Part shown: positions 1 to 61,510 of the stretch, one piece after another | How the letters are laid out: each line of letters opens with the position of its first letter | Position numbering within the stretch: position 1 is the first letter of the stretch | The notes under the pieces: generated by a model | What the model saw: only the letters and a program-made list of their open reading frames with translations | The model's database searches: none | What the model was told of the DNA's origin: nothing | Translations under genes and position numbers: made by a program | Assembly (NCBI GenBank): GCA_003962975.1 | Contig: RXKC01000001.1 | Coordinates: 38,061-102,060 of the forward strand | Reading direction: 5' to 3' | Origin: Candidatus Saccharimonadota bacterium | GTDB taxonomy: Bacteria > Patescibacteriota > Saccharimonadia > Saccharimonadales > AWTP1-31 | Length of the DNA: 64,000 bases

Positions 1-1086
1 CAAAAACAGGTTAAAAAAACGCTGAGCAAGCGATACCGACGTCGTCTTGTTCGCTACGGAATTCTTCTTGCGAACCTCGTTATGTTGGTAGGTGTGGCTG
101 CTTTTATCCTCAAGACCCCTAGTAGTGGCCCTTCATCTGCAAATAACATTGCTAATGCTGGCAGTGAATCAGTGACAGCAACTGGTGCACTTGATCAGCT
201 TTCATCTGCTGACATTGCTGTTCAGGTAGCTATTATGACCAAGCTATATCAGGCGCCATCAGTCGCAAACCATGCCGATACCATGAACGCACAGTTGGCA
301 GTTACTCCTGCCGATGACACTGTTATTGCTAAGCCACAGGTAGTAGCGACAGCGTTGAAGTCATATAAAGATATTCAGACGTACGTCACCGTTGAAGGTG
401 ACAATATTCCAAACGTAGCAGCTAAGTTTGGTATAACCTCTGAAACCGTACGGTGGTCAAATGGCCTGCAGGGTGACAACTTGTCACCTGGAATGAGTCT
501 GGTTATTTCACCGGTGAACGGTATTGTATACACAGTTAAAGACGGCGATACTATCGACACAATTGCTTCTAAGTATCGCGCCAACAAAGATCAGATTATT
601 GCCGATAACGACGCTGAGGCCGGCGGTTTACGTGTTGGTCAGCGTATTCTGATTCGTGACGGTAGTGAGGCGCCAGTGGTTATTCCTCGAGTTGCTACTG
701 CTGCTACATACGGTGCTGGCTTCGCCTGGGGCGGCGGCAATGCTGTCTATCAAGGCGGCGCCAATGGCTACGACTACGGCTACTGTACATGGTGGGCTGC
801 TAACCGACGTGCCCAAATCGGTCGTCCTGTTCCAAGTAACCTAGGAAATGCAAGTACATGGCTAACGCTCGCTCAACGAGCCGGTTTTGCTACTGGTAGT
901 GTGCCACAGGCAGGTGCTGTTATTTGGACTCGTCCGTATGACTGGTATGGCCACGTTGGGTTTGTAGAATCAGTCAACGACGACGGCAGTGCCAATATCT
1001 CTGAAATGAACGTAGCCGGTTGGGGTGTAGTTAGTCGCAAGACTCTGTCTGCAGCCGAAGCTGCTAACTATCTCTACATCTACTAG
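1..1086 (+). CDS. LysM-repeat / CHAP-domain peptidoglycan hydrolase (5' end probably cut by window edge)
   Basis: ORF 82-1086, and the same frame stays open back to nt 1 (QKQVKKTLSKRYRRRL then TM-like LVGVAAFIL). LysM-like repeats (YTVKDGDTIDTIASKY...RVGQRILI). C-terminal CHAP signature (CTWWAANRR...GHVGFVESV). Confidence 0.8.
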   Translation, partial: QKQVKKTLSKRYRRRLVRYGILLANLVMLVGVAAFILKTPSSGPSSANNIANAGSESVTATGALDQLSSADIAVQVAIMTKLYQAPSVANHADTMNAQLAVTPADDTVIAKPQVVATALKSYKDIQTYVTVEGDNIPNVAAKFGITSETVRWSNGLQGDNLSPGMSLVISPVNGIVYTVKDGDTIDTIASKYRANKDQIIADNDAEAGGLRVGQRILIRDGSEAPVVIPRVATAATYGAGFAWGGGNAVYQGGANGYDYGYCTWWAANRRAQIGRPVPSNLGNASTWLTLAQRAGFATGSVPQAGAVIWTRPYDWYGHVGFVESVNDDGSANISEMNVAGWGVVSRKTLSAAEAANYLYIY

Positions 1087-1155
1087 AAACGACGAGTGGT
1101 TCTGGTTCCTGAGAAATACAAAACAACAATTCTAACATAATTTTTACGATTGTAA

Positions 1156-2463
<1,308 letters not shown>

Positions 2464-2527
2464 TCATAATCATATCGGCACATGCCGGTCGTGTCTAGGT
2501 ATTGGAGGGGTGATACACTAGATTGGT

Positions 2528-3982
2528 ATGGCTGACAGTCTTTATTTTTACGACCTAGAAACCTCGGGTATAAACCCACGAGAATCACGTGTGATGCAAT
2601 TCGCCGGTCAGCGCACCGATCTAGATCTAAACCCAATTGGTGAACCGCACAATATTCTCATTACTTTGTCGGAAGACGTCTTACCGGACCCTGACGCAAT
2701 CTTGATAACAGGAATTACTCCACAGCAAACACAAGCTGAAGGGACGACAGAGTATGACTTTTTACAAACGTTTGCGCGCGAGATTGCAACGCCAGGAACG
2801 ATTTTTGTTGGCTATAATACCGTCCGTTTTGATGATGAATTTATGCGCTGTCTGCATTGGCGAAACTTTCATGACCCATACCAATGGCAGTGGAAGGACG
2901 ATCGGTCGCGCTGGGATTTACTCGATGTTGTTCGCATGACTCGCGCCCTACGACCAGAAGGAATCAAGTGGCCAGTTGACAGTGAAGGCAGGCCGACCAA
3001 CAGGCTCGAACTACTATCTGCCGCCAACAAACTCGAACATAGTCACGCTCATGATGCACTCAGTGATGTTCGTGCCACCATAGCCTTGGCACAGCTGCTG
3101 CGAGGCAAGCAGTCCAAGCTCTTTGACTACTTATTGAAAGTACGCGACAAGCAATCGGTTCGCAGTATTGCCACTGCAGGAAAACCTTTTGTGTACTCGT
3201 CAGGCAAGTACTCGTCACAGTTTGAAAAAACCACTGTTGTTGAGTTCATGAGTGAAAACTCAAGAAAAGACGGGGCACTGGTCTATGACCTACGTTGGGA
3301 TCCGACGCCATTTGCTACTATGTCTGCCGATGAATTGGTAAATGCTTGGGCCTGGCAAAAACCAGAAGACCGTAAACCAGACGAGCCACGTTTGCCGATA
3401 AAAACGCTCAAGTATAATCGCTGTCCGGCAGTTGCTCCTTTAGCAGTACTAGACCAGGAAAGTCAGCAAAGACTAAAAATAGATATGGCAGTAATTGAAG
3501 CGAACCGAAAAAAGTTGGCAGCAATTACTGATTGGCCCGACAAAGTGTTATTAGCGCTTGATATTATGGATGGCCAAAGGCAGCAACACTTTGACGGACT
3601 TGAAAAACACGTCGATGGGCAAATATATGACGGCTTCTTAGATGAAGGTGACAACAAACTGATAGAGAAATTACGAAACGCGCAACCGGATGAGCTGGCT
3701 GACTTTGTGTCGCGGTTGCACGACAAACGGCTTAAAGAACTTTTGCCACTTTATAAAGCCAGAAACTTCCCCCGCAAGTTGAACGATCAAGAAAAGGAAG
3801 AGTGGGAGCAGTACAAATCGAAGCGTTTGTTTGATGGTGGCGCGAACAGCCGTTTGCAGAAATACTTCGCCAGAATACAAGAGATTGCTGCTCGACCCAG
3901 TCTGACACAGGCGCAACGATATATCCTCGAAGACTTAACTTTGTACGGTCAGAGTCTTATGCCAGCTGATTGGGAGAACTAA
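2528..3982 (+). CDS. sbcB: exodeoxyribonuclease I
   Basis: DEDDh exonuclease motifs (FYDLETSGINP, GYNTVRFDDEF, HDALSDV). 484 aa, ExoI-like length and C-terminal region. Confidence 0.9.
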   Translation: MADSLYFYDLETSGINPRESRVMQFAGQRTDLDLNPIGEPHNILITLSEDVLPDPDAILITGITPQQTQAEGTTEYDFLQTFAREIATPGTIFVGYNTVRFDDEFMRCLHWRNFHDPYQWQWKDDRSRWDLLDVVRMTRALRPEGIKWPVDSEGRPTNRLELLSAANKLEHSHAHDALSDVRATIALAQLLRGKQSKLFDYLLKVRDKQSVRSIATAGKPFVYSSGKYSSQFEKTTVVEFMSENSRKDGALVYDLRWDPTPFATMSADELVNAWAWQKPEDRKPDEPRLPIKTLKYNRCPAVAPLAVLDQESQQRLKIDMAVIEANRKKLAAITDWPDKVLLALDIMDGQRQQHFDGLEKHVDGQIYDGFLDEGDNKLIEKLRNAQPDELADFVSRLHDKRLKELLPLYKARNFPRKLNDQEKEEWEQYKSKRLFDGGANSRLQKYFARIQEIAARPSLTQAQRYILEDLTLYGQSLMPADWEN

Positions 3983-4145
3983 CTTTAGCTGTCGCTTTGT
4001 TTGTTCGACGAACAGTGCGAATTTTGCCACCTTCAAGATAGGCAAATGCAAAGCCAGCAGCTATAAGCCCTAGTAGCAGTAGCCAGCTAAGGGTGAGTAC
4101 GAAGTTTGTACCCGGTACGATTCCCAGAACTATGAATTCAAGCAT
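3957..4145 (-). CDS. small membrane protein, hypothetical
   Basis: ORF track 3957-4187. I prefer internal start MLEFIVLGIVPGT... at 4145 because a TTGACT-16-TATAAT promoter (4204-4177) sits inside the longer ORF. One clear TM helix. Overlaps the sbcB 3' end by 26 nt. Confidence 0.4.
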   Translation of the reverse strand: MLEFIVLGIVPGTNFVLTLSWLLLLGLIAAGFAFAYLEGGKIRTVRRTNKATAKVSSPNQLA

Positions 4146-4176
4146 CCCACGTCCATCCACATTAGATTTAGACGGA

Positions 4177-4204
4177 ATTATAAACAATATTGCACATAAG
4201 TCAA
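4177..4204 (-). promoter_or_regulatory. sigma70-type promoter TTGACT-16-TATAAT with two CAATATTG palindromes
   Basis: Minus strand: -35 TTGACT (4204-4199), 16-nt spacer, -10 TATAAT (4182-4177). The decamer AACAATATTG occurs twice on the plus strand (4183-4192 and 4203-4212), 20 nt apart. Confidence 0.45.
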
Positions 4205-4234
4205 CAATATTGTATTGTTCTTATGCTTAACGAC

Positions 4235-5071
4235 TTATTCGGCCTGATACGAGCCCAGAACTTGCAGCTTCCAACCCTCGCTCTGTAAGGCTGTCAGGAC
4301 GCGCGTGCCTGCTTCACTCTCTGCAGATTCATCAAAGTCGATGAAGAAGGAATAAGACCTAACCGCACCGGGTTTGGGGTGACTGTCAAGTTTAGACAAG
4401 TTAATATTTTCCTGCGTGAATAACCCCAGAGCTTTATACAGTAAGCCCGGTTGATCAGACTCGTTCTCTCGCAGAATTATGCTGGTTCGGTTGGCGGCCG
4501 GGTTAAGAATTGGGTGTTTGGTGATAACAAAAAAGCGCGTGTAATTTTGAGGGTCATCGTTAATATCGGTACGAATGACGGTGCCGCCATGTAATTCTGC
4601 TGCATGTTGACTGGCAATGGCAAAAGTACGTGGGTCAGGTGTCGCCACTATACTGCGAACAGCTGCGGCTGTGTCGTCTGCCTCAGATAACTTAGCTAAA
4701 GGAATATTGCCACGCAGCCACTGCTCACATTGTCCAAAGGCCGCAAAGTGCGAGTAGACGATTGTTTCAGGACTATTAAGAGTAGCGACATCTGCGGGCT
4801 GGCTCCCGATAAGGCATAAGTTGATACGCAGGCGAATCTCGCCCTCAACCCACAAGGATTCTTTGGCAAGCAGCCGATAGACAGGATTGATCGAACCATG
4901 GAGCGAGTTTTCGACGGCTACTATGCCTCGATCTGCCTGACCGTCCTGGACTGCCTTAAAAACATCTTGAAAGCTTAGACACTCAAGTATCTCTATGTCT
5001 TGTTTTGCATAATACTGAGCTGCTGCCTGCTCGTGGAATGAGCCACTAATTCCTTGGATCGCTACTTTCAT
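4235..5071 (-). CDS. pheA: prephenate dehydratase
   Basis: PDT domain (MKVAIQGISGSFHEQAA...) followed by a C-terminal ACT domain (TSIILRENESDQPGLLYKALGLF...SRP-like region). 278 aa, typical monofunctional length. Confidence 0.88.
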   Translation of the reverse strand: MKVAIQGISGSFHEQAAAQYYAKQDIEILECLSFQDVFKAVQDGQADRGIVAVENSLHGSINPVYRLLAKESLWVEGEIRLRINLCLIGSQPADVATLNSPETIVYSHFAAFGQCEQWLRGNIPLAKLSEADDTAAAVRSIVATPDPRTFAIASQHAAELHGGTVIRTDINDDPQNYTRFFVITKHPILNPAANRTSIILRENESDQPGLLYKALGLFTQENINLSKLDSHPKPGAVRSYSFFIDFDESAESEAGTRVLTALQSEGWKLQVLGSYQAE

Positions 5072-5146
5072 AACCTGCCTATGTTATCACAAATAACAAC
5101 AGATAAACGTTTGTTTGTTACGGCTTACGCTTTACTATATGACTAT

Positions 5147-5830
5147 ATGGGGGAAATTGTGCCACCAGAACCGGCAGAAGTTCTACAGCCAACCGGAATA
5201 TATGCGGCCGTTTATGTTGAGCCGATTGGTAGACACTCAAAATTCTTTAACCAGTTCAATAGCCGAACCTTACGCGAAAACCTGGCGGCTGGCAATATGC
5301 ATGTCAGTGTGCAATATCCTCGAGAAGTTATTGACCAGGGTGTCCAGGCCACAGATTATGAGCAAGTAGCCGACGCTGCAGCCCTGGCACAAAGTCGATT
5401 GGGTAAAATGGGACTATTTGGTGTGGAGTTTTATGTTGACACAGAGCGCGGCATACAGGGAAAGAAGAAATGGTGGACAGTAGAGGTAGACGAAGAATAC
5501 GACACCCTATTCAACCAGTGTCGACAGGCTGCCGCTCTGGCAGTCGAAGAAACACTTGAAGGCATTACGATTGCACACAGTAATCCTGACGGCTACCACG
5601 TAAGCCTCGTGCATAGAGGCAAGTCAAGTCATTCACGGATGAAAGCTAAAATTGCGCCGCCTCAGCGATGGCGAGTGACTGGGGTGGGTGTTATACAGTC
5701 TACGGTTTCGACTCGGGAAGCAGCCGAGCATTTGGCCGCTCATGGGTCGGCTGCAGCACCTGGCAACGACGGTCAATCTTATGCTAATCGGCCACGCAGG
5801 CTGCAAACAAATCATTCGGCACGTAAATAG
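5147..5830 (+). CDS. hypothetical protein, possible 2H phosphoesterase (LigT-like) fold
   Basis: ORF track 5054-5830. That start overlaps the divergent pheA start, so alternative starts are 5081 or 5147 (TACTAT 5133-5138, 8 nt before ATG 5147). Two H-x-S-x motifs about 99 aa apart (MHVSVQY, YHVSLVH). Low-complexity basic tail. Confidence 0.3.
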   Translation: MGEIVPPEPAEVLQPTGIYAAVYVEPIGRHSKFFNQFNSRTLRENLAAGNMHVSVQYPREVIDQGVQATDYEQVADAAALAQSRLGKMGLFGVEFYVDTERGIQGKKKWWTVEVDEEYDTLFNQCRQAAALAVEETLEGITIAHSNPDGYHVSLVHRGKSSHSRMKAKIAPPQRWRVTGVGVIQSTVSTREAAEHLAAHGSAAAPGNDGQSYANRPRRLQTNHSARK

Positions 5831-5884
5831 ACCGGCGCTAAGCTCTAGAAAGTTTTAGATTAGTGGCGTATACTAATTGGTCAC

Positions 5885-8695
5885 ATGACTGAGTTTATTG
5901 ACGTACGCGGTGCTAGGGAGCACAACTTAAAAAACGTGGATGTTAAGATTCCGCGTGGCAAGCTAGTCGTTATTACCGGACTTAGTGGCTCCGGAAAATC
6001 GAGCCTAGCTTTTGATACTATCTATGCTGAAGGTCAGCGTCGTTACGTAGAAAGTCTCAGTAGCTATGCACGACAGTTTTTGGGCCTTATGGAAAAGCCC
6101 GATGTTGACCAAATTGACGGCCTCAGTCCAGCTATTTCTATTGATCAAAAATCAACCAGTCGTAACCCGCGCAGTACAGTTGCTACCGTCACAGAAATCT
6201 ATGATTATCTTCGCTTACTGTTTGCACGCATTGGTGTGCCGCATTGTCCGGTTTGCAACAAGCCAGTCGAGCGCCAGACGGTTCAGGCCATTGTTGACCA
6301 AGTTGCTGGTCAGGCGGTTGATGCTCGGTTGTTTATATTGGCCCCGGTAGTTATTGATAAAAAGGGAGCCTTTGAGCATGTGTCTGAGCAATATCAACGA
6401 GCTGGCTTTGCGCGTGTGCGTGTAGACGGTGTTGTCTATGCACTCGACGAATTTCCTGAGCTCGATAAGAAGTATAAGCACACTATAGAAGTTATCGCTG
6501 ACCGACTGGTAAACAACCAAGACAGCCGCGGTCGACTTGCCCAATCGGTTGAGCAGGCCTTAGATATCGCCGACGGTAAGCTAAAAGTTATTGATGCAGA
6601 TAGTAACGAAGAGTTTAGTTACAGTTTGCAATATGCTTGTATTGATCACCCAGAAGTAACTATTCCAGAGCTCGAACCACGAACATTCAGCTTTAATAGT
6701 CCACATGGTGCGTGCCCGGTATGTACCGGTCTTGGCTCACGACTCGAAGTCGATCCAGAGCTTGTTATCCCAAACGGCCGGCTGACTATTGCCGAAGGCG
6801 CCATCCGACCGTTTAACCGTATCAACACAGACGCCTGGTATATGAAGAAGGTCCAGGCTTTGGCAGATCGGCATTCCTTTAGTTTGCACGTACCAACAAG
6901 TGAGTTGACTGAACAGCAAATGTACATGCTAATGTACGGTACTGGTAATGAAAAGTATCGCATTTCACTTGGTTCTGGACGTATGTTCGACACGACCTAT
7001 GAAGGTGTTGTTAATAACCTAGAGCGCCGACACAAAGAAACCGACAGTGACTTTATCCGTCGCGACATTGAGCGCTTTATGCAAGAGCGCCCTTGTCATG
7101 CCTGCAGAGGTAAGCGCTTAAAGCCCGAAGTCCTGGCAGTCACTGTGGGCGGCAAATCTATTATGGATATTTGTGAGCTGTCTATTGATGAAGCCATTGA
7201 CTACTTTAATGGAGTAAAAATGAGCGACAAAGAGCAACACATTGCCGCTATGATTTTGAAGGAAGTCTGCTCACGCCTGCAGTTCCTGCGTGATGTAGGA
7301 CTTAGCTATCTTAACTTATTGCGAAGCGCAGTTACTCTCAGTGGCGGTGAAGCACAACGCATTCGTTTAGCTACCCAGATTGGCTCTGGCCTACAGGGTG
7401 TGCTGTACGTCCTAGACGAACCATCAATTGGTCTACACCAGCGTGATAACGGACGACTTATTACAACGCTCAAACACCTCAGAGATATCGGTAACAGTGT
7501 CTTGGTTGTTGAGCATGACGAGGACACAATCCGAACCGCCGATTACTTACTGGACATTGGTCCTGGAGCTGGTGTGCATGGTGGCCATATTGTTGCCGCT
7601 GGTTCACCCGATGAGGTTGCCAAGAATCCAAAAAGTATCACGGGACAATATTTGCGGGGCACTAAGGAAATTGCTGCACCCAAAAAGTATCGCCCTGGGA
7701 ATGGTAAGGAATTAGTTATTGTCGGCGCTCGCGAGAACAACTTGCAAAACGTTACTGCCAGTATCCCACTCGGAAAGCTTGTGGTGGTAAGCGGTGTATC
7801 GGGTAGTGGTAAATCGAGTCTTATTAACGATATTCTTGCTCGCGAACTCTCTGCACGACTGATGCGTGCCAATACAGTTCCTGGCAAGCACGACGAAATA
7901 CAAGGCCTCGAGCATCTAGATAAGGTGATCATTATCGACCAATCGCCAATTGGCCGTACGCCACGCAGTAACCCTGCGACCTATACGGGCTTATTTACGC
8001 CAATACGTGAGCTATTTGCTGGTGTTCCGGAAGCCAAGCTGCGCGGCTATAGCGCCGGACGCTTCAGTTTTAATGTCAAAGGTGGTCGCTGTGAAAACTG
8101 TGCCGGTGACGGCATTATCAAAATCGAGATGCACTTTTTGCCTGACGTATATGTGCCGTGCGAAGTTTGTAAGGGCAAGCGGTACAACCGTGAAGCACTC
8201 GAGATTCACTTTAAGGGTAAAACAATTAGCGATGTGCTCGATATGACCTGCGAACAAGCGCTCGAATTCTTTGGCAACATTCCTTCTATTGCTCGTAAAC
8301 TTCAAACTCTTGTAGATGTTGGCCTTGGTTACATTGGCCTTGGCCAGCCAGCTACAACTCTCAGTGGCGGTGAGGCACAACGTATTAAGTTGGCGAGTGA
8401 ATTGTCACGTCGTCCAACTGGCCGTACGCTGTACATTCTTGATGAGCCAACCACCGGTTTGCACATTGCTGACGTAGACAAGCTGCTAAAAGTGCTACAT
8501 GCTCTGGTTGATACCGGCAACAGTATGGTAGTTATCGAACACAACCTAGACGTTATAAAATCTGCTGATCACCTAATTGACATGGGTCCAGAAGGCGGCT
8601 CTGGTGGCGGGCAAGTAGTTGCCACGGGGACTCCTCGTGAAATTGCCAAAGCCAAAGAATCATACACTGGCCAGTTCCTCAAAAAAATGTTATAG
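5885..8695 (+). CDS. uvrA: excinuclease ABC subunit A
   Basis: 936 aa. Two ABC ATPase modules ([18 protein letters not shown]; LSGGEAQR twice) and zinc-finger CxxC pairs. Typical UvrA N-terminus [13 protein letters not shown]. Confidence 0.97.
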
Positions 8696-17325: not shown

Positions 17326-17353
17326 TGTCAGCACCGTGCTTGTTTCAGGTGTA

Positions 17354-17413
17354 GGCTATGAAATGTGAGTCAGATATGGACGCTTAGCTCACATAGAGCC
17401 ACTAGCGTAACCG
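17354..17413 (+). ncRNA. unclassified structured RNA motif, copy A (60 nt, helix plus pseudoknot)
   Basis: GGC-TAT-GAAAT-GTGAG[loop ..TGGACGCTT..]CTCAC-ATA-GA-GCC then CACTAGCGTAACCG. Loop GGACGCT is complementary to AGCGT-AA-CC in the tail. Both helices covary with copy B at 19516-19575. Confidence 0.6.
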
Positions 17414-17448
17414 AACAGTTTGACACAGGCCAAGATGGTGAGTTTTGA

Positions 17449-17487: not shown

Positions 17488-19383
17488 TTAGTGCTTGATG
17501 CCGCCGCGCAGTAAGCCACCCCATTCAACTAAGGTGAAGCCGTTACGTTTTGGTGCAGTAAATTTCTGAGGAGTAATGTCGATCGGACTATTTAAGCCTT
17601 CAAAGTCCAAGAAGGTGCGAATGGTAGTTTGTGGTTGCTGGCTGAGAGTTAGTGGGGCTAGCTGGTTAAGCTGTGTTGTGGTTAGCCAAGAGATACGTAC
17701 GTAGGGAGTGCTAGGAATATGAGGTTGCCAGAAGTCCATGAACTCTGTAATCTCACGGCCGCGCAGGCCTTGGGCTGCTAATTGGTCGCGCATTGTTGCA
17801 TCTGCTTGTGCGGTGGGTACTACGGTACCGCTGGTAATCTCAGGGTACGTGCCATATCCATAGCCTTCCCAGAAGAGTGATCCATATGCTTTGTTTTGGT
17901 AGCGTAGATTACCATTTGGCTCGGCAGTAACATTCTTCCAGCCACCTTTTGGATAGTTTGGTTCAGAGATGACGACGTCAGCTCCAACTGCTACATCAAG
18001 CATTGTTTTCTTGGTGGGATATAGGTAGATAACGGGTTTTGCACAACCTCCGCGTATAAACAAGTCATCCCGCAGGAAGACAACATATTCGCCGAGGCCA
18101 TTTTTGGCAAGGAAGTAGCCATGCTTATCTGTAAGTTGCTGAACAGTTAAGTTTTTCAGGCTGTCGTCATTAGTGCTTTCGCCAGTCATGTAGTCTTTCT
18201 CAAAGAGTTCTACGACTAATGGATGGGTGTTGGGCAGCTGGTATAGAGTTTGGCCGCCTGCTGTCTTGCCGGCGGCAACAACCATAGAATCCGTTACATC
18301 TTTTGCGGACACATAGCCACCGGCTGATCCACAGCCACTACCAGCGCTATAGTACGCCGAGGTATTCTTTTCGCCAGTTGTCCAGTTGTAGGCTACTTTG
18401 TCCGTCTTGCTAGCTATCTCTCCAGCGGGCTGATAAGGAATAGCGTATACGCCGTTTACAGTCCCATAGTACGCGTACACTTTATAGGTTGCGTTGTCGC
18501 TGATCAGCGCTTTGTAGTATGATTTGCCATCTTTATCTGCGAGCTTATCGGGTAAACCATGTTTTAACTCACCCCAGAATGAGCCACGAACACTGTTCAG
18601 TCCGCCAAGTATAAAGTAACCAGTTGCACCTTCTGACAAAGACATTTTTTGCCCAGCAATTTCAACTTCCTTTGGAAAATCGAGACCAGGTAGTTTAGTA
18701 GTAGTATCGACATCCACGCCAGCCGCTAGAGCATCTTTAAAACGTTTCAGCGTTGTTGCTTCGTAGTCATCAGTTTTTATCGCATAGATACCAGCGCCAG
18801 TTGATTGAAGGGCAAGCACGGTATATGTTCGATCACCATTATCGACGATGGTAAAGTCGCCGCTGTCCATGCCAAGCCCATAGGTGACCACAATGATCTT
18901 GCCGCCCGACTTGGTACTGCCAACCTGATGGTAGGTGAGCTCATCGGTTGTCACGCTAGGCTCGCACCCAGTGGTATAACTTGGTGGATCACAGTTTTCT
19001 TCACCTAGAATATTTAGGTTGGCCAAGAATGTGAACGGTGTATACGTCTGTGCTGACTCAAGGTACGTAACATCAGGAATTTCTTTGGCTACTGGTTTAG
19101 CTGTGTTTGCTTGGGGCTTGGGTGTAGGTTCAGGTGTTTTCTCTCGCCCAAAAACGAGCCAGCCAGCGATAGCCAGAATAATAACAGTGACTACTCCAAC
19201 GATAATCCACTGTTTTTTACTTAGTTGTATACGTCGTTTCTTCTTATCTGTTTGTACTTGATTATCATTGTTTTCAGAGGTTAGGTCGGTGTTGCTGTTA
19301 TCGCTTTCTAATGTCGTATCATCGGTGTTTTCGGTCAGGTCTGGTGAGATCACTTCTTCTGCGGGTTTGTCTTGTTTTGGCAT
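17488..19383 (-). CDS. large bitopic membrane/surface protein, hypothetical
   Basis: ORF track start is 19419. AAGGAG lies 7 nt before ATG 19383, so I prefer that start (631 aa). Acidic disordered N-terminus, one TM (WIIVGVVTVIILAIAGWLVFG), about 540-aa ectodomain with no motif I recognise. Confidence 0.6.
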   Translation of the reverse strand: MPKQDKPAEEVISPDLTENTDDTTLESDNSNTDLTSENNDNQVQTDKKKRRIQLSKKQWIIVGVVTVIILAIAGWLVFGREKTPEPTPKPQANTAKPVAKEIPDVTYLESAQTYTPFTFLANLNILGEENCDPPSYTTGCEPSVTTDELTYHQVGSTKSGGKIIVVTYGLGMDSGDFTIVDNGDRTYTVLALQSTGAGIYAIKTDDYEATTLKRFKDALAAGVDVDTTTKLPGLDFPKEVEIAGQKMSLSEGATGYFILGGLNSVRGSFWGELKHGLPDKLADKDGKSYYKALISDNATYKVYAYYGTVNGVYAIPYQPAGEIASKTDKVAYNWTTGEKNTSAYYSAGSGCGSAGGYVSAKDVTDSMVVAAGKTAGGQTLYQLPNTHPLVVELFEKDYMTGESTNDDSLKNLTVQQLTDKHGYFLAKNGLGEYVVFLRDDLFIRGGCAKPVIYLYPTKKTMLDVAVGADVVISEPNYPKGGWKNVTAEPNGNLRYQNKAYGSLFWEGYGYGTYPEITSGTVVPTAQADATMRDQLAAQGLRGREITEFMDFWQPHIPSTPYVRISWLTTTQLNQLAPLTLSQQPQTTIRTFLDFEGLNSPIDITPQKFTAPKRNGFTLVEWGGLLRGGIKH

Positions 19384-19459
19384 GTCACTGCTCCTTGTAT
19401 GATTGTTTGCTTTAAGCATAACCCCAAAAGCGTCAAGGGTAAACTAGACACGTAAAGTA

Positions 19460-19488: not shown

Positions 19489-19515
19489 TACTGTCACCAA
19501 AAAAGTTTTGGTTGT

Positions 19516-19575
19516 CGACTATGAACTTGTACTCGTATTTGGACGCTTGAGTACTAGGGAGTCACTAGCGTAACC
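19516..19575 (+). promoter_or_regulatory. unclassified structured RNA motif, copy B (candidate riboswitch/attenuator aptamer)
   Basis: GAC-TA-TGAACTT-GTACTC[loop GTATTTGGACGCTT]GAGTAC-TA-GGGA-GTC then CACTAGCGTAACCG. Same loop and tail as copy A, with compensatory helix changes. Confidence 0.6.
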
Positions 19576-19600
19576 GGGCAACAGAACCTCTCTCTTCATG

Positions 19601-19630
19601 AGCGGTTTGGAGCCACCCAAACCGCTTTTT
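19601..19630 (+). terminator. intrinsic terminator inside operon leader
   Basis: 9-bp stem GCGGTTTGG/CCAAACCGC, 6-nt loop, T6 tract (19625-19630), 40 nt upstream of ATG 19670. Confidence 0.75.
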
Positions 19631-19669
19631 TGGTTGATCGATGTAAATCTTTCATCCAAGGAGGATGCA

Positions 19670-20350
19670 ATGACAAATCTAGGCCCTGAGTTCGTAGATC
19701 CAATGGACGCCTTTCCAGTCGGACAACCAGTTATTGGTGTTGATGTGAATGAAGTACAGTTTGTGCGCGACTTATATGTAGTCGGAGCAATTAGTGTGGA
19801 CACTGCCGGCACAGAACAAAGCCGTTATTATCCTTACCGATCTGCAGAGTTTGGCGGTTTGCTATTTGAGCCGATCGATACTCGTGAACCAAGTAATGAA
19901 TATTTACTAACTCCAGACTCCTACAATGATCGCGTCAGAAACGAAGGGCCGGTGATTCGAACTTCATTTGCAGATGGAAATCTGGAAGACCGATATGCAG
20001 TGCTACTACGTCCTAATGGTGGCCAGCCTTTTGCCGGCTATATCTTACGTTATGATTCTGCGCCACATGTTCGTATTGCCGAGCAACTGCCGCTCGTGCA
20101 GCGAGAAGTGCCAACCGGCTTACGCCAATTTGGCGAACGACGAGCTGCCATTAAAAATAATCGTGCTCTTGCTGAACGCGAGCAAGCAAAGCGATACCGC
20201 CGACAGCGAGCAAGTGATCCGCTTGGCCACACCGAAGTACTTGACCGTATGGCCGGTCTTTTCTATGGGGAAGTAACCCGACTGCAGGGTGGACCGGTTC
20301 GAATAGGTATGCCACCAGAAGCTCGTAAAGAACACGAAGAAGAGGACTAG
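19670..20350 (+). CDS. hypothetical soluble protein (first gene of three-gene operon)
   Basis: ORF track starts at 19598, inside the terminator. AAGGAGGA (19658-19665) precedes ATG 19670. 226 aa, no TM, basic Arg-rich C-terminal helix. No motif recognised. Confidence 0.6.
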   Translation: MTNLGPEFVDPMDAFPVGQPVIGVDVNEVQFVRDLYVVGAISVDTAGTEQSRYYPYRSAEFGGLLFEPIDTREPSNEYLLTPDSYNDRVRNEGPVIRTSFADGNLEDRYAVLLRPNGGQPFAGYILRYDSAPHVRIAEQLPLVQREVPTGLRQFGERRAAIKNNRALAEREQAKRYRRQRASDPLGHTEVLDRMAGLFYGEVTRLQGGPVRIGMPPEARKEHEEED

Positions 20351-36508: not shown

Positions 36509-36586
36509 CATTGAAAAATCACCCCTGATCGGGTATCCTATACAGGTTGACCAAACAGCAGTTATGCTTCTTCCGAAGCATAATCT

Positions 36587-36662
36587 GGCTCTTTAGCTCA
36601 GTTGGTAGAGCAGAGGCCTGAAGAGCCTTGTGTCCCCAGTTCGAGTCTGGGAGGAGCCACCA
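36587..36662 (+). tRNA. tRNA-Phe (anticodon GAA)
   Basis: GGCTCTT acceptor, D arm GCTC-AGTTGGTA-GAGC, anticodon arm GAGGC-CTGAAGA-GCCTT, T arm CCCAG-TTCGAGT-CTGGG, CCA. Confidence 0.92.
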
Positions 36663-36700
36663 AACCAAAATCCCGATATTCTTCGGGATTTTGGTTTGGT
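36663..36700 (+). terminator. intrinsic terminator after tRNA-Phe
   Basis: About 14-bp stem AACCAAAATCCCGA/TCGGGATTTTGGTT with a T-rich tail. Confidence 0.7.
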
Positions 36701-36828: not shown

Positions 36829-38244
36829 ATGGAAGTGCAGACATTTACTTCAGACACTAAACGTTTGGCTGGAACGGAAACCGAGCACGGTTGCCAGGTC
36901 GAGCGTGAATTTAACGGTCACATGCTTGTGGGCCATGAGATTGCGCGCTATGTCTATGACTACATGGACGAAGATGTTGCCCACGCCGGCTATCATTTAG
37001 AAACGGGAGACAGGGCATACCCTGATATTAATGGTCACTTTGAATTTGCCACTGCAGAAGAAGTCTCTTTTAGGAGCGTTATAGAACGCGAATTTTGGGG
37101 CGGTCAGTTTGTGTTCCGTGCTATGCAGCGAGCCAAAGAGGCCGGACGAATTGCTGATTTTAAGATCACTAAGAACGTAAACAACGGTATCTTCTATTGG
37201 GGATACCACGAAAACTATCTGACGCCACGAACCGAATGTTGGCAAGAACAGTACATATTGCCATTGGCCGTGCACCTTGCAACCCGACAAGTCTTTGCGG
37301 GTGCTGGCGATCTGCGTCCAGACGGAACATATTTGGTGTCACAAAAAGCCGACAGTACTAGGTCTCTCAACCATGGTGAGGCACACCAAGAGCTCTGGCG
37401 ACCACTGGTCGACATGCGTGACGAGCCACACGCTGACGCAGACATGTATCGACGACAACATATAACTCCTGTTGACCCACATCTGTGGAAGTTCCCAGCG
37501 TGGTTGCAGATGGCTACTACTTCGGTGGTTATGCGGTTAGTAGAGGGAGGGGTAGACTTGAGTGACCTGTATTTGCAGAATCCGGTCGCAGCAACTCACC
37601 AGGTAGCTAAAGACGTTTGGCTCAAGCAGCCACTAGAAATGGCAAATACACAAAAGACGTACACAGCGCTTGAGATTCAGTACCTACTGGCACTACGCAG
37701 CAAGCAGTTTGCAGAAACGCATCCTCTGCCCGAGGAAGAGCAGATAGCCATAAAAGAATGGATACGTATTCTCGAAGATCTACAGAGTGGCCCATCTGCG
37801 TGTGTTGACCGAGTAGAATGGATCGGTAAACGCAATTTTCTGAATGCCATGCGCGAAAGGCGAGGCGTGGATATGAGGCATCCGCATATGGTTGCCGCTG
37901 CTCGCAACTGGACAGACCTCGACCCTGAAACTGGGTTTGGGCTACGCCTGCAACATAAATCTGCTGATATACCGTATGGCGACAACCTTGTAGACGGTTC
38001 GGTGCCGCCAGCTGACACGCGTGCTCACGCCCGCGGCCGCCTGATCGGTGCAGTCATGGCATGGACACGTAGGTCTCAAGAAAGACCAAAACACCCCATT
38101 AGAGGTATGGGTACAGACTGGAGCAGGGCGACATTAGACAGGTCACATAGCGTCAAAGAAGGGCAACATATCCTGATGTTAGACCCGTACCGCTCACGCT
38201 ACGACCATGTCGAAGAAGTCATTGATGAAATGGAGGCCGCCTAA
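36829..38244 (+). CDS. Pup-ligase/deamidase family protein (PafA/Dop-like carboxylate-amine ligase)
   Basis: Collinear matches to the M. tuberculosis PafA sequence as I recall it: GTETEHG (GIETEFG), [11 protein letters not shown] (GSHPEYATAE), WGYHENYL (YGCHENYL), [31 protein letters not shown] ([21 protein letters not shown]), [10 protein letters not shown]. 471 aa. Confidence 0.8.
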   Translation: [471 protein letters not shown]

Positions 38245-38312
38245 GCAAAAGATCAGCAAAAAATACTGACTTGAGTGTAACGCTAAAGTCCAGTATAATC
38301 TTCATCTGTTAC

Positions 38313-38389
38313 GCGGGTCTAGCTCAGTTGTTTAGAGCGCGTCCTTGCCAAGGACGAGGCCAGGGGTTAGAGTCCCCTGACCCGCACCA
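38313..38389 (+). tRNA. tRNA-Gly (anticodon GCC), unusual D-loop/T-loop pair
   Basis: GCGGGTC acceptor, anticodon arm CGTCC-TTGCCAA-GGACG, CCA. D loop is AGTTGTTTA (no GG) and T loop is TTAGAGT (A at position 56). TATAAT at 38294-38299. Confidence 0.85.
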
Positions 38390-38405: not shown

Positions 38406-38429
38406 AAATACACCTTCGGGTGTATTTTT
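38406..38429 (+). terminator. intrinsic terminator after tRNA-Gly
   Basis: AAATACACC-TTCG-GGTGTATTT with a T-run. Confidence 0.75.
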
Positions 38430-60928: not shown

Positions 60929-61438
60929 ATGAGTTCTGGTGGCAGGAAACGTTCTTGGACTGACGAGCAGCTAATTGCAATTGTTAAAGAATCGCGCAGT
61001 GTCCGTATGGTTATTATGAAGCTAGGTCTAATTCCGGCAGGCGGCAATTACGCACAGGTTGGTGCAAGAATTGATGAGCTCCATCTGAACACAGAACATT
61101 TTACTGGAAAGGGCTGGAATCATGGATTACTCTTCGTCCCGGTTCCGCCAACACCTCTTGAAGAAATCCTTGTGAAAAATAGAAGGTATCAAAGCCACTC
61201 ATTAAAAAAGCGATTATTTGCAGCTAATCTTAAATTGCCGGCATGTGAACTATGTGGCTGGGCAGAGAAGTCGGTAGATGGTAGAATTCCAGTAGAGTTG
61301 GACCATATCAATGGAGACCACTTAGACAATAGAATTGAAAATTTACGCATTCTTTGTCCAAACTGTCATAGTCTTCAGCTTACTTACAGGGGTAAGAATA
61401 AGAAAGTCTATCTGACAAAACATGCGCGGGTGTTGTAA
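60929..61438 (+). CDS. HNH endonuclease with N-terminal HTH-like domain
   Basis: CELCGW...ELDHINGDHLDNRIENLRILCPNCH. TACAAT (60917-60922) lies 6 nt before the ATG. The last 15 nt overlap the tRNA-Leu 5' end. Confidence 0.8.
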   Translation: MSSGGRKRSWTDEQLIAIVKESRSVRMVIMKLGLIPAGGNYAQVGARIDELHLNTEHFTGKGWNHGLLFVPVPPTPLEEILVKNRRYQSHSLKKRLFAANLKLPACELCGWAEKSVDGRIPVELDHINGDHLDNRIENLRILCPNCHSLQLTYRGKNKKVYLTKHARVL

Positions 61439-61510
61439 TTGGTAGCCAAGTCTGACTTAAAATCAGATGCCTTAATCGGCGTGCGGGTTCAAGTCCCGCC
61501 CCGCGCACCA
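61424..61510 (+). tRNA. tRNA-Leu (anticodon TAA)
   Basis: Acceptor GCGCGGG/CCCGCGC, anticodon arm TCTGA-CTTAAAA-TCAGA, long variable arm, T arm GCGGG-TTCAAGT-CCCGC, A-CCA. Confidence 0.88.

Follow-up and report, generated by a model that had tools for sequence, protein, structure and literature searches.

The presence of a lone gene of the Pup ligase/deamidase family (PafA and Dop) between two tRNA genes of a Saccharibacterium, with no proteasome locus in view, raises the question as to what such an enzyme could be doing there and how it was acquired. Pupylation is usually assigned to Actinobacteria and Nitrospirae, apart from sporadic outliers. The gene (positions 36829-38244, forward strand) lies in a window of 64 kb, by which we mean the whole stretch of DNA analysed here, on a 106-kb contig of a Candidatus Saccharibacteria metagenome-assembled genome (MAG); same-MAG neighbours of its product include UvrA, UvrC, ObgE and exonuclease I. 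The open reading frame (ORF) starts with ATG, is intact and encodes 471 amino acids (aa); the protein is deposited as RTK95395.1 and annotated 'hypothetical protein EKI60_00385'. A preliminary description, made from the letters alone, had assigned this product to the PafA/Dop family, and all the motifs it quoted are present in the translation. Its guess that the organism might be an epibiont fits the MAG's identity as Candidatus Saccharibacteria; cultivated Saccharibacteria are described as epibionts of Actinobacteria (PMC10633639).

Our answer, to which we give a probability of roughly 0.55, is that the gene encodes a functional, vertically inherited, PafA-type enzyme that would ligate a tag or substrate independently of a neighbouring proteasome. 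The narrower term 'protein-tag ligase' is more tentative and falls slightly short of an even chance. For family, lineage and functionality taken jointly, on the other hand, our confidence is high. Pupylation persists in corynebacteria that have no proteasome, and a 1.4-kb gene kept under strong purifying selection in a reduced genome implies a real function.

Family membership, catalytic residues and PafA-type positions

Membership of the 471-aa protein in the Pup-ligase/deamidase family (PF03136) is secure. The Pfam profile Pup_ligase matches it with E=3.6e-68 and 231 bits (cut-off 25) over profile positions 60-428 of 441, and a sequence search of the PDB returned Dop and PafA at E=3e-37 to 2e-32. 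An AlphaFold2 (AF2) model built from an input alignment of 28 sequences has a predicted local distance difference test (pLDDT) value of 88.8 and a predicted template-modelling score of 0.92. Searched with Foldseek, this model matches Dop (4B0R, 7OXY, 5LRT) and PafA (4BJR) with template-modelling (TM) scores of 0.81-0.84, while the next-best folds, YbdK/GCS2 followed by glutamine synthetases (GS), reach merely 0.25-0.45. A better fit to some other GS-like family was looked for in Pfam, NCBIfam and Foldseek and none emerged; neither Pfam nor NCBIfam gave a match to GCS2/YbdK or glutamine synthetase. The two equivalog models of NCBIfam remain below threshold: TIGR03686 (PafA) aligns along its full length (model positions 1-457 of 457) but scores 204.6 bits against a cut-off of 551.3, and TIGR03688 (Dop) scores 185 bits against 492.3. 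By these scores, the protein is neither a canonical PafA nor a canonical Dop. The PADLOC defence library matched neither the ligase nor its two neighbours.

The catalytic apparatus is complete. Residues of the GxExE motif, D66, H70, E72, E77, H127-E128-N129, R153, R191, R197-D-E-P-H201, R209, H211, R398, R402 and W431 are invariant in the clade (Table 1 gives the motifs), and the protein keeps 60 of the 84 positions that are at least 80% conserved across PafA, Dop and other outgroup sequences. Arg191, which is invariant in the close clade, is the equivalent of R201 of Corynebacterium glutamicum PafA, a residue that touches the C-terminal carboxylate of Pup (PMC8599861). R134, R197 and R208 are likewise kept; they are the equivalents of the site-2 arginines with which PafA docks its protein substrates (PMC10465538), and Dop has these too. 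Set against this conservation, several positions that are conserved across PafA and Dop have been systematically swapped in the clade: KNN has become K-N/R-V, F149 is replaced by His, and Y361-H362 by W-T.

The preliminary description had left PafA and Dop undivided. To separate them, we transferred the positions tabulated by Hecht et al. 2020 (PMC7947786, Table 1) to the protein through HMMER and MAFFT alignments. The Dop loop, in which about 37-40 residues including a conserved Trp are inserted ahead of strand beta2 and which is described in all Dop orthologs (PMC8599861), is absent: the spacing between GxExE and NGxRxYxD is about 45-50 residues in the clade, compared with 43-50 in PafA and 72-82 in Dop, and the only gap against C. 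glutamicum PafA in the N-terminal region is one residue long. After the catalytic Asp, the protein reads D66-I-N-G-H70 where C. glutamicum PafA has D64-V-G-S-H and Dop, which is without the insertion, has D-H-A-H; I67 thus matches the inserted V65 of PafA, with G66 and S67 replaced by N68 and G69. A74-T75-A76 corresponds to A72-T73-A74 of PafA, as opposed to S-[AT]-P in Dop, relatives of the protein having S-T-A. In the C-terminal domain, D430 ahead of the invariant Trp equals D439 of C. glutamicum PafA, a position that is Ser or Asn in Dop. Finally, a profile of the wider clade (alignment A4, 40 sequences), run against an index of 5.8 billion proteins, scored named PafA proteins at 370-412 bits and every Dop at 367 or less, a search usable only for this ranking of PafA over Dop, its word prefilter having missed the members of the clade themselves. 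As judged by these alignments, the architecture is PafA-type at most diagnostic positions.

The alpha-loop is the element that departs from this pattern. In PafA it is helical and carries H188, W190, E191, G192, S194, S195, A196, T197, T198, R199 and S200; it has been identified as the main discriminator between ligase and hydrolase, and mutation of the Thr-Thr dyad slows PafA (PMC7947786). In our protein, the loop exceeds that of PafA or Dop by two residues, has no Thr-Thr dyad and is missing H188, W190, E191, S194, S195 and A196, and AF2 models it as non-helical with low confidence (pLDDT 62-79). The division of the family that the preliminary description did not attempt thus comes out as PafA-type in architecture, with an alpha-loop that is non-canonical. 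This unusual loop is, in effect, an experiment of nature on the part of the enzyme that decides between ligase and hydrolase activity.

Clade, conserved locus and inheritance

Close relatives are few. The 5.8-billion-protein index held only four, with identities of 93, 52, 40 and 41%, after which come actinobacterial PafA and Dop at only about 29%. When 1.84 billion representatives were searched exhaustively with HMMER and a clade profile, 4520 family members were recovered along a score gradient that runs from 884 bits (P0001; P numbers denote related proteins, L numbers related loci) through 751 (P0003), 738 (P0004), 434 (P0117), 383 (P0118) and 300-330 (P0119-P0123) to a continuum below about 273 bits. 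Most of the top 150 members carry the motif WG[YS]HE[NS]Y, where PafA and Dop have YG, and all of those in the top 150 that have both spacing motifs show the short, PafA-like spacing. W124 is the mark of this Saccharibacteria 'WG' clade; the residue is Tyr in PafA and Dop, and Tyr occurs there at a frequency of 0.02 within WG. When the search was seeded with a distant WG member, PafA and Dop of Nitrospirae and Actinobacteria appeared below about 200 bits.

An unrooted neighbour-joining tree (201 sequences, 398 columns, 100 bootstraps) joins the protein with P0001-4 and P0117 at a bootstrap of 100, within a WG supergroup of about 113 of the 201 leaves (bootstrap 52-64) outside which canonical PafA and Dop fall. 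This phylogenetic check, one that the preliminary description had proposed, places the clade apart from both actinobacterial PafA and Dop. Scanning one genome per GTDB species (n=185,579) with the single pattern [YFA]WG[YR]HE[NS]Y[LQ], which makes the count a lower bound, gave at least 4 loci, 4 of 4 in Saccharibacteria or Saccharimonadales MAGs, and every taxon-labelled WG member is from Saccharibacteria/Saccharimonadales. A Joint Genome Institute (JGI) metagenome scan with alignment A2 returned just 3 loci and added two further relatives, and a scan of viral contigs for the clade found no relatives. By motif, score and tree, the protein belongs to a deep Saccharibacteria-associated subfamily apart from canonical PafA and Dop. 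NCBI names some WG members 'proteasome accessory factor PafA2 family protein' and others 'hypothetical protein'; the former label is homology detected automatically, not studied.

Two features of the wider family were seen in passing. The His of RDEPH is replaced in several branches (RDEPLA, RDEALA, RNQPLA), including many WG members such as P0118 (locus L013), and P0056-P0072, which are 500-530 aa long and carry RDEPLA, have some 35 additional residues inserted in their C-terminal domain and form a separate branch in the tree.

The position of the gene is conserved as well. ARAGORN and Rfam both found the flanking tRNA-Phe and tRNA-Gly that the preliminary description had pointed out, and the ligase adjoins tRNA-Phe in 9 loci that span 29-93% protein identity. 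In L012, L013 and L014 (32-35% identity), tRNA-Phe, ligase and tRNA-Gly stand in the same order as in the window. L001 (40%) is a contig that begins at tRNA-Phe and ends at tRNA-Gly, which the ligase abuts, and in L009 (41%) tRNA-Phe lies 39 nucleotides (nt) upstream of the ligase start codon. Even at about 29% identity (L024), tRNA-Phe is found 124 nt upstream of the ligase, together with long synteny to the window (UvrC, M24 peptidase, holin_4_2, SBP_bac_5, FAD oxidase ... MazG, ligase). L020 and L022 have tRNA-Phe and tRNA-Gly directly upstream of the ligase on the opposite strand, and the arrangement of tRNA-Phe with the ligase is missing only in L015/L016 and L018.

Comparison with an 87%-identical ortholog (L010) gave a synonymous divergence (dS) of 0.71 and a nonsynonymous divergence (dN) of 0.036, hence a dN/dS of 0.051; the ligase gene is under strong purifying selection. 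Its GC content (0.511) and third-position GC content (GC3, 0.495) are near or inside the range of the neighbouring genes, so that a composition test for recent horizontal transfer was negative. Taken together, the conserved position, the low dN/dS and the host-like composition argue for ancient vertical inheritance of a functional gene and not for recent transfer. Horizontal acquisition, which had been entertained in the preliminary description, therefore does not hold up as a recent event, given also the positional ortholog at 29-40% identity and the deep clade, and a transfer from an actinobacterial host, if it ever took place, was ancient.

How the gene is expressed can be approached only from its signals. 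The suggestion that each tRNA has its own terminator stands for tRNA-Gly, where the scanner called one; a hairpin directly 3' of tRNA-Phe is visible, as had been noted, but was not called. The latter is a probable terminator or processing structure, going by its sequence. In the relatives L009 and L012-L014, tRNA-Phe is followed by a strong terminator-like GAGGGC...GCCCTC hairpin with a T-run, and just 0-20 nt separate its end from the ligase start codon; this gap shows neither an evident Shine-Dalgarno sequence nor an evident promoter. As this leaves no room for a separate promoter in these four loci, we infer that the ligase is read through from tRNA-Phe. The window has a hairpin unlike that of the relatives and about 125 nt after it, in which just a weak promoter-like TTGACT-18-TATACG can be seen by eye, and there is no terminator between the ligase stop codon and the promoter-like site ahead of tRNA-Gly. 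The placement of the hairpin before the ligase start suggests terminator read-through or another regulatory role.

Table 1 Features of the ligase gene and its surroundings (window coordinates unless a related locus is named).
Feature	Coordinates	Strand	Basis
Coding sequence of the 471-aa PafA-like (Pup_ligase family) protein, stop included	36829..38244	+	ORF, Pfam, NCBIfam, AF2/Foldseek, dN/dS
GhExE ATP/Mg-binding motif of the carboxylate-amine ligase superfamily, codons G15-T-E17-T-E19	36871..36885	+	Invariant in clade alignments; motif defined in PMC7947786
Catalytic Asp and one-residue PafA-type insertion before His, then 'ATAE', codons D66-I-N-G-H70-F-E72-F-A-T-A-E77	37024..37059	+	Alignments to PafA/Dop; PMC7947786 Table 1 positions 10-15
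Metal-binding HEN motif, codons W124-G-Y-H127-E128-N129-Y-L131	37198..37221	+	Motif survey, conservation table
Alpha-loop, codons K173-R191	37345..37401	+	Alignments to PafA/Dop; AF2 model
RDEPH nucleotide-pocket motif and arginines, codons R197-D-E-P-H201 ... R208-R209-Q-H211	37417..37461	+	Alignments; arginines equivalent to PafA site-2 R207, R218 (PMC10465538)
C-terminal-domain D430-W431: PafA-type Asp and invariant Trp	38116..38121	+	Alignment; PMC7947786 Table 1 position 46
tRNA-Phe(GAA), conserved upstream neighbour	36587..36662	+	ARAGORN and Rfam; adjacency also in L001, L009, L012, L013, L014, L020, L022, L024
tRNA-Gly(GCC), conserved downstream neighbour	38313..38389	+	ARAGORN and Rfam
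MazG-family nucleoside triphosphate pyrophosphohydrolase, 104 aa	36194..36508	+	Pfam MazG
Band_7/SPFH protein, 248 aa	35419..36165	+	Pfam
Promoter-like site TTGAAA-17-TATCCT, upstream of tRNA-Phe	36511..36539	+	Consensus match only
Hairpin directly 3' of tRNA-Phe, AACCAAAATCCCGA-TATTCT-TCGGGATTTTGGTT	36663..36698	+	By sequence; inverted self-match 36659-36700; not called by terminator scanner
Promoter-like site TTGAGT-17-TATAAT, between ligase stop and tRNA-Gly	38271..38299	+	Scanner; -10 region conserved in relatives
Intrinsic-terminator-like hairpin and T-run after tRNA-Gly	38406..38427	+	Scanner
GAGGGC...GCCCTC terminator-like hairpins	L009 162-200; L013 9940-10000; L014 9946-9991; L012 9745-9979; L024 320-443

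Other genes recur at this site. MazG adjoins the ligase in L014 (9500-9817) and in L024/L025 (L024 1753-2070), where it converges on the ligase with a 14-nt overlap at the ligase 3' end, and is no more than 3 kb away in L015 (6703-7044); Band_7/SPFH, which recurs less often than MazG, adjoins the ligase in L020 (11444-12199). These recurrences may be synteny only. The slot between tRNA-Val and tRNA-Phe, occupied by Band_7 and MazG in the window, holds a coiled-coil ORF in two Saccharimonadales MAGs (L012 9163-9603 and L013 9338-9796), with about 123 aa from an internal Met (146-152 aa as an ORF) and the ending ...ERQAAQWG.

The tRNA-Phe site is also an insertion hot spot, with the ligase lying outside both of the insertions seen. 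In L004, which comes from another strain or sample, a 100% identical ligase is preceded by just the last 16 nt of tRNA-Phe (CTGGGAGGAGCCACCA; L004 5981-5996 equals window 36647-36662), and positions 1-5980 are unrelated DNA joined at the tRNA-Phe end that encodes PLDc_2, HTH, DUF3800, Peptidase_S51, NUDIX and PNPOx products. This junction resembles the attR end that an element would leave on integrating at tRNA-Phe, the alternative being an assembly chimera at the tRNA. L001 (187-6396; MAG CAZWJA01) has six extra genes between tRNA-Phe and ligase, with products of 60, 345, 323 (Big_7), 553 (Big_7/CARDB), 431 and 144 aa; the 431-aa product looks, by eye, Pro/Thr/Ser-rich and membrane-anchored.

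Elsewhere in the window, two matches to the c-di-GMP-II riboswitch aptamer (RF01786) were found at 17343-17425 and 19505-19588, both on the forward strand, with 55.5 and 56.3 bits, slightly more than the gathering score of 53.5. A 250-aa ORF (19598-20350, no Pfam match) begins 10 nt after the second, with a 1035-aa Amidase_2 protein encoded behind it. Downstream of the first there is no ORF on the same strand; it faces a 643-aa ORF on the minus strand (17488-19419, no Pfam match) at the 3' end of the latter. At 60929-61438 (+), a 169-aa HNH_3 ORF ends inside the start of tRNA-Leu(TAA) (61424-61510, +) and may be a homing-endonuclease-like gene abutting the tRNA.

Missing partners and candidate functions

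The search for partners covered the 64-kb window and about 12 related loci (±10 kb where available), about 250 kb altogether and not whole genomes. Within that span the earlier observation that the window has no Pup, Mpa or proteasome genes was borne out: essentially all sizeable ORFs of the window were searched against Pfam (giving ABC transporters, pyrimidine-synthesis genes, a Pif1-family helicase and a GlmS-like protein with GATase and SIS domains, among others), and no proteasome subunit, AAA+ unfoldase or Pup is among them. Nor did Pfam listings or ORF inspection reveal a Pup, proteasome or AAA+ gene near L001, L012-L016, L018, L020, L022 or L024, and an AAA+ Walker A motif of the GPPGxGKT type was not found in the window, L001, L012-L015 or L018. 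A Pup-proteasome locus elsewhere that would make the gene an ordinary dispersed component was thus not seen in the window or the related loci read. Pup itself gave no credible match with phmmer, using M. tuberculosis and C. glutamicum probes that may miss a divergent tag, and none of 150 small intergenic ORFs scanned with Pfam matched Pup. The C-terminal patterns GG[QE], R[ST]G[EQ] and [KR]G[GA][QE] yielded no credible tag in the window and loci; the single ORF end of the R[ST]G[EQ] type, a UBact pattern, is that of a MarR-domain protein (...SRSGQ) in L022.

Several candidate tags were considered and rejected. The window's only GGQ-ending stop-to-stop segment (5370-5483) has no Met, lies in another frame inside the span of the 5054-5830 ORF and is not Pup-like. 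The match of M. tuberculosis Pup to the MazG neighbour (E=0.24-7.8; window, L014 and L024) involves one acidic helix and is put down to chance, and MazG is identified as such by Pfam (E=2e-16) and ends in KKK. The coiled-coil ORFs between tRNA-Val and tRNA-Phe end in ...QWG (L012/L013) or ...QQQ (L014) and are conserved in L012/L013 only, and the 144-aa ORF that lies 6 nt upstream of the ligase in L001 ends in KKS and has no relatives in the other loci.

On the PafA-type reading, the fully conserved catalytic apparatus would bind ATP-Mg in the beta-sheet cradle and phosphorylate a gamma-carboxylate. This carboxylate would most probably be that of the C-terminal Glu of a small protein or peptide, held via the conserved Arg191, and the acyl group would then pass to an amine, most probably that of a lysine side chain, so that an isopeptide bond is formed. 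The tag or substrate would be either something other than Pup as now defined or encoded far from the ligase, and the reaction would not be coupled to a neighbouring proteasome or Mpa/ARC. Within the tRNA cluster, the ligase would probably be transcribed at a low level by read-through from tRNA-Phe.

Several points weigh against this reading. The alpha-loop, the reported switch between ligase and hydrolase, resembles by alignment neither that of PafA nor that of Dop, and for that reason ligation is only the putative direction of the reaction. No tag, acceptor or other partner was found within about 10 kb on each side of the loci, and because coverage was about 10 kb per side and not whole genomes, a distant pup-like gene is possible; the Pup probes (two sequences, a Pfam scan of 150 ORFs and C-terminal patterns) could also miss a divergent tag. 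The tree is unrooted, neighbour-joining and weakly supported in its backbone, and most WG members lack a taxon label, including most of 20 representatives looked up. With regard to the missing tag, pafA is often not adjacent to pup in Actinobacteria.

The most serious alternative is a repurposed carboxylate-amine ligase that has kept GS-like chemistry but given up Pup-like proteins. Its carboxylate substrate would be a small molecule or part of the cell envelope, to be joined to an amine, or else it would modify a single dedicated protein. It would account for the lack of a tag gene near any of the roughly 12 loci, for the remodelled alpha-loop with its lost Thr-Thr dyad, for the clade swaps at positions conserved in PafA and Dop (KNN, F149, Y361-H362) and for scores far under both equivalog cut-offs, and the superfamily does include small-molecule ligases (GCS2/YbdK, GS). 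However, the two-domain PafA/Dop architecture is whole, C-terminal domain included (TM 0.81-0.84), the helical region 221-345 is well conserved with PafA and Dop, and Arg191 and the docking arginines R134, R197 and R208 are invariant in the close clade, although the docking arginines are found in Dop as well. We regard repurposing as unlikely, if worth keeping in mind.

A Dop-like amidase or depupylase, or a bifunctional enzyme of ancestral type that both attaches and removes a tag, is less probable still. The best sequence and fold matches in the PDB are marginally to Dop, the alpha-loop, like that of Dop, is modelled without a helix, and Gly183 can be aligned with the Dop-specific Gly215; a promiscuous ancestor and the single-copy homologues of Planctomycetes (PMC7947786) would make a bifunctional enzyme conceivable. 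Against this stand the absence of the Dop loop reported in all Dop orthologs (PMC8599861), the PafA-type residues beside the catalytic Asp, in ATAE and at D430, and the preference of the clade profile for PafA. Also missing is the Thr-Thr dyad, which in Dop faces the active site, and the alpha-loop model is of low confidence.

It is quite improbable that the enzyme acts on Pup or pupylated proteins of an actinobacterial host, which would explain why the epibiont lacks its own Pup gene. The source is a Saccharibacterium, the family otherwise has its centre in Actinobacteria and Nitrospirae, and no endogenous Pup was found in the window and about 12 loci, but by eye the N-terminus is not hydrophobic in the manner of a signal peptide (GxExE begins at residue 15), identity to actinobacterial PafA/Dop is only about 29%, and the neighbourhoods are without any hint of secretion or host interaction. 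Recent horizontal acquisition, with the gene as possibly decaying mobile-element cargo at a tRNA integration hot spot, is strongly disfavoured: the position between two tRNA genes, the exact junction of foreign DNA with the last 16 nt of tRNA-Phe in L004 and the six extra genes between tRNA-Phe and ligase in L001 could suggest it, but the L004 insertion does not include the ligase, whose sequence in L004 is 100% identical, the locus is kept across 29-93% protein identity, dN/dS is 0.051 with host-like composition, viral contigs hold no relatives, and the ORF is intact with all catalytic residues present.

A more far-reaching version of the PafA-type reading can be put forward only as speculation, with long odds against it. 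Saccharibacteria, and perhaps other members of the candidate phyla radiation (CPR), might run an unrecognised, proteasome-independent conjugation system, built on a single enzyme that either predates the split of PafA and Dop or is an early-diverging PafA-like form, using a new tag or host Pup, with the linkage to tRNA-Phe making a shared regulatory unit.

Comparison with known systems

In a full-text literature search, no paper came up that brings PafA, Dop, pupylation or 'proteasome accessory factor' together with Saccharibacteria or Patescibacteria. The phyla with PafA/Dop given by the survey of Hecht et al. (PMC7947786) are Actinobacteria, Nitrospirae, NC10, Armatimonadetes, Verrucomicrobia, Nitrospinae, Firmicutes, Proteobacteria and Planctomycetes, and Saccharibacteria and CPR are not among them. 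Our analysis shows a PafA-like lineage, both deep and well conserved, in epibionts that are ultrasmall and have reduced genomes.

With PafA (C. glutamicum, PDB 4B0T/4BJR; TIGR03686), the protein shares the two-domain GS-like fold (TM 0.81), the motifs GxExE, HEN and RDEPH, the catalytic Asp and Arg191 as the equivalent of R201, as well as features specific to PafA, namely the lack of a Dop loop, the inserted residue behind the catalytic Asp, A-T-A, and Asp-Trp in the C-terminal domain. It differs in an identity of about 29%, the alpha-loop, the phylum, WGYHENY in place of YGCHENY, and a locus without pup, pafBC, mpa or prcBA nearby (±10 kb). With Dop (Acidothermus cellulolyticus, PDB 4B0R/5LRT/7OXY; TIGR03688), it has in common the fold (TM 0.82-0.84), the catalytic residues and possibly a non-helical alpha-loop, the model of which has low confidence, whereas the missing Dop loop, D-I-N-G-H, ATAE (S-[AT]-P-E in Dop) and Asp before the conserved Trp set it apart.

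The Planctomycetes outgroup of Hecht et al. 2020 and the ligases linked to UBact are likewise lone divergent members with about 29-31% identity to PafA and Dop, from phyla that lack the two-enzyme pathway of the classical kind. The Planctomycetes proteins partly align with the Dop loop (PMC7947786), unlike our clade, which is without it. That survey argues for a promiscuous ancestor and describes single-copy homologues in Planctomycetes; the present clade could serve as an outgroup to root the PafA/Dop duplication. UBact systems have been described with a tag gene and proteasome-like genes. Neither of these is seen near our ligase in the window or the related loci. If it is true that the enzyme uses a new tag, ubiquitin-like tagging would extend to the CPR.

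GCS2/YbdK and glutamine synthetase, finally, belong to the same superfamily. They share with the protein the core cradle and the ATP-dependent activation of a gamma-carboxylate, but differ in fold (TM 0.25-0.45) and sequence (about 10-13% identity). Should the substrate turn out to be of a different kind, the enzyme would mark the boundary between protein-tagging and metabolic carboxylate-amine ligases.

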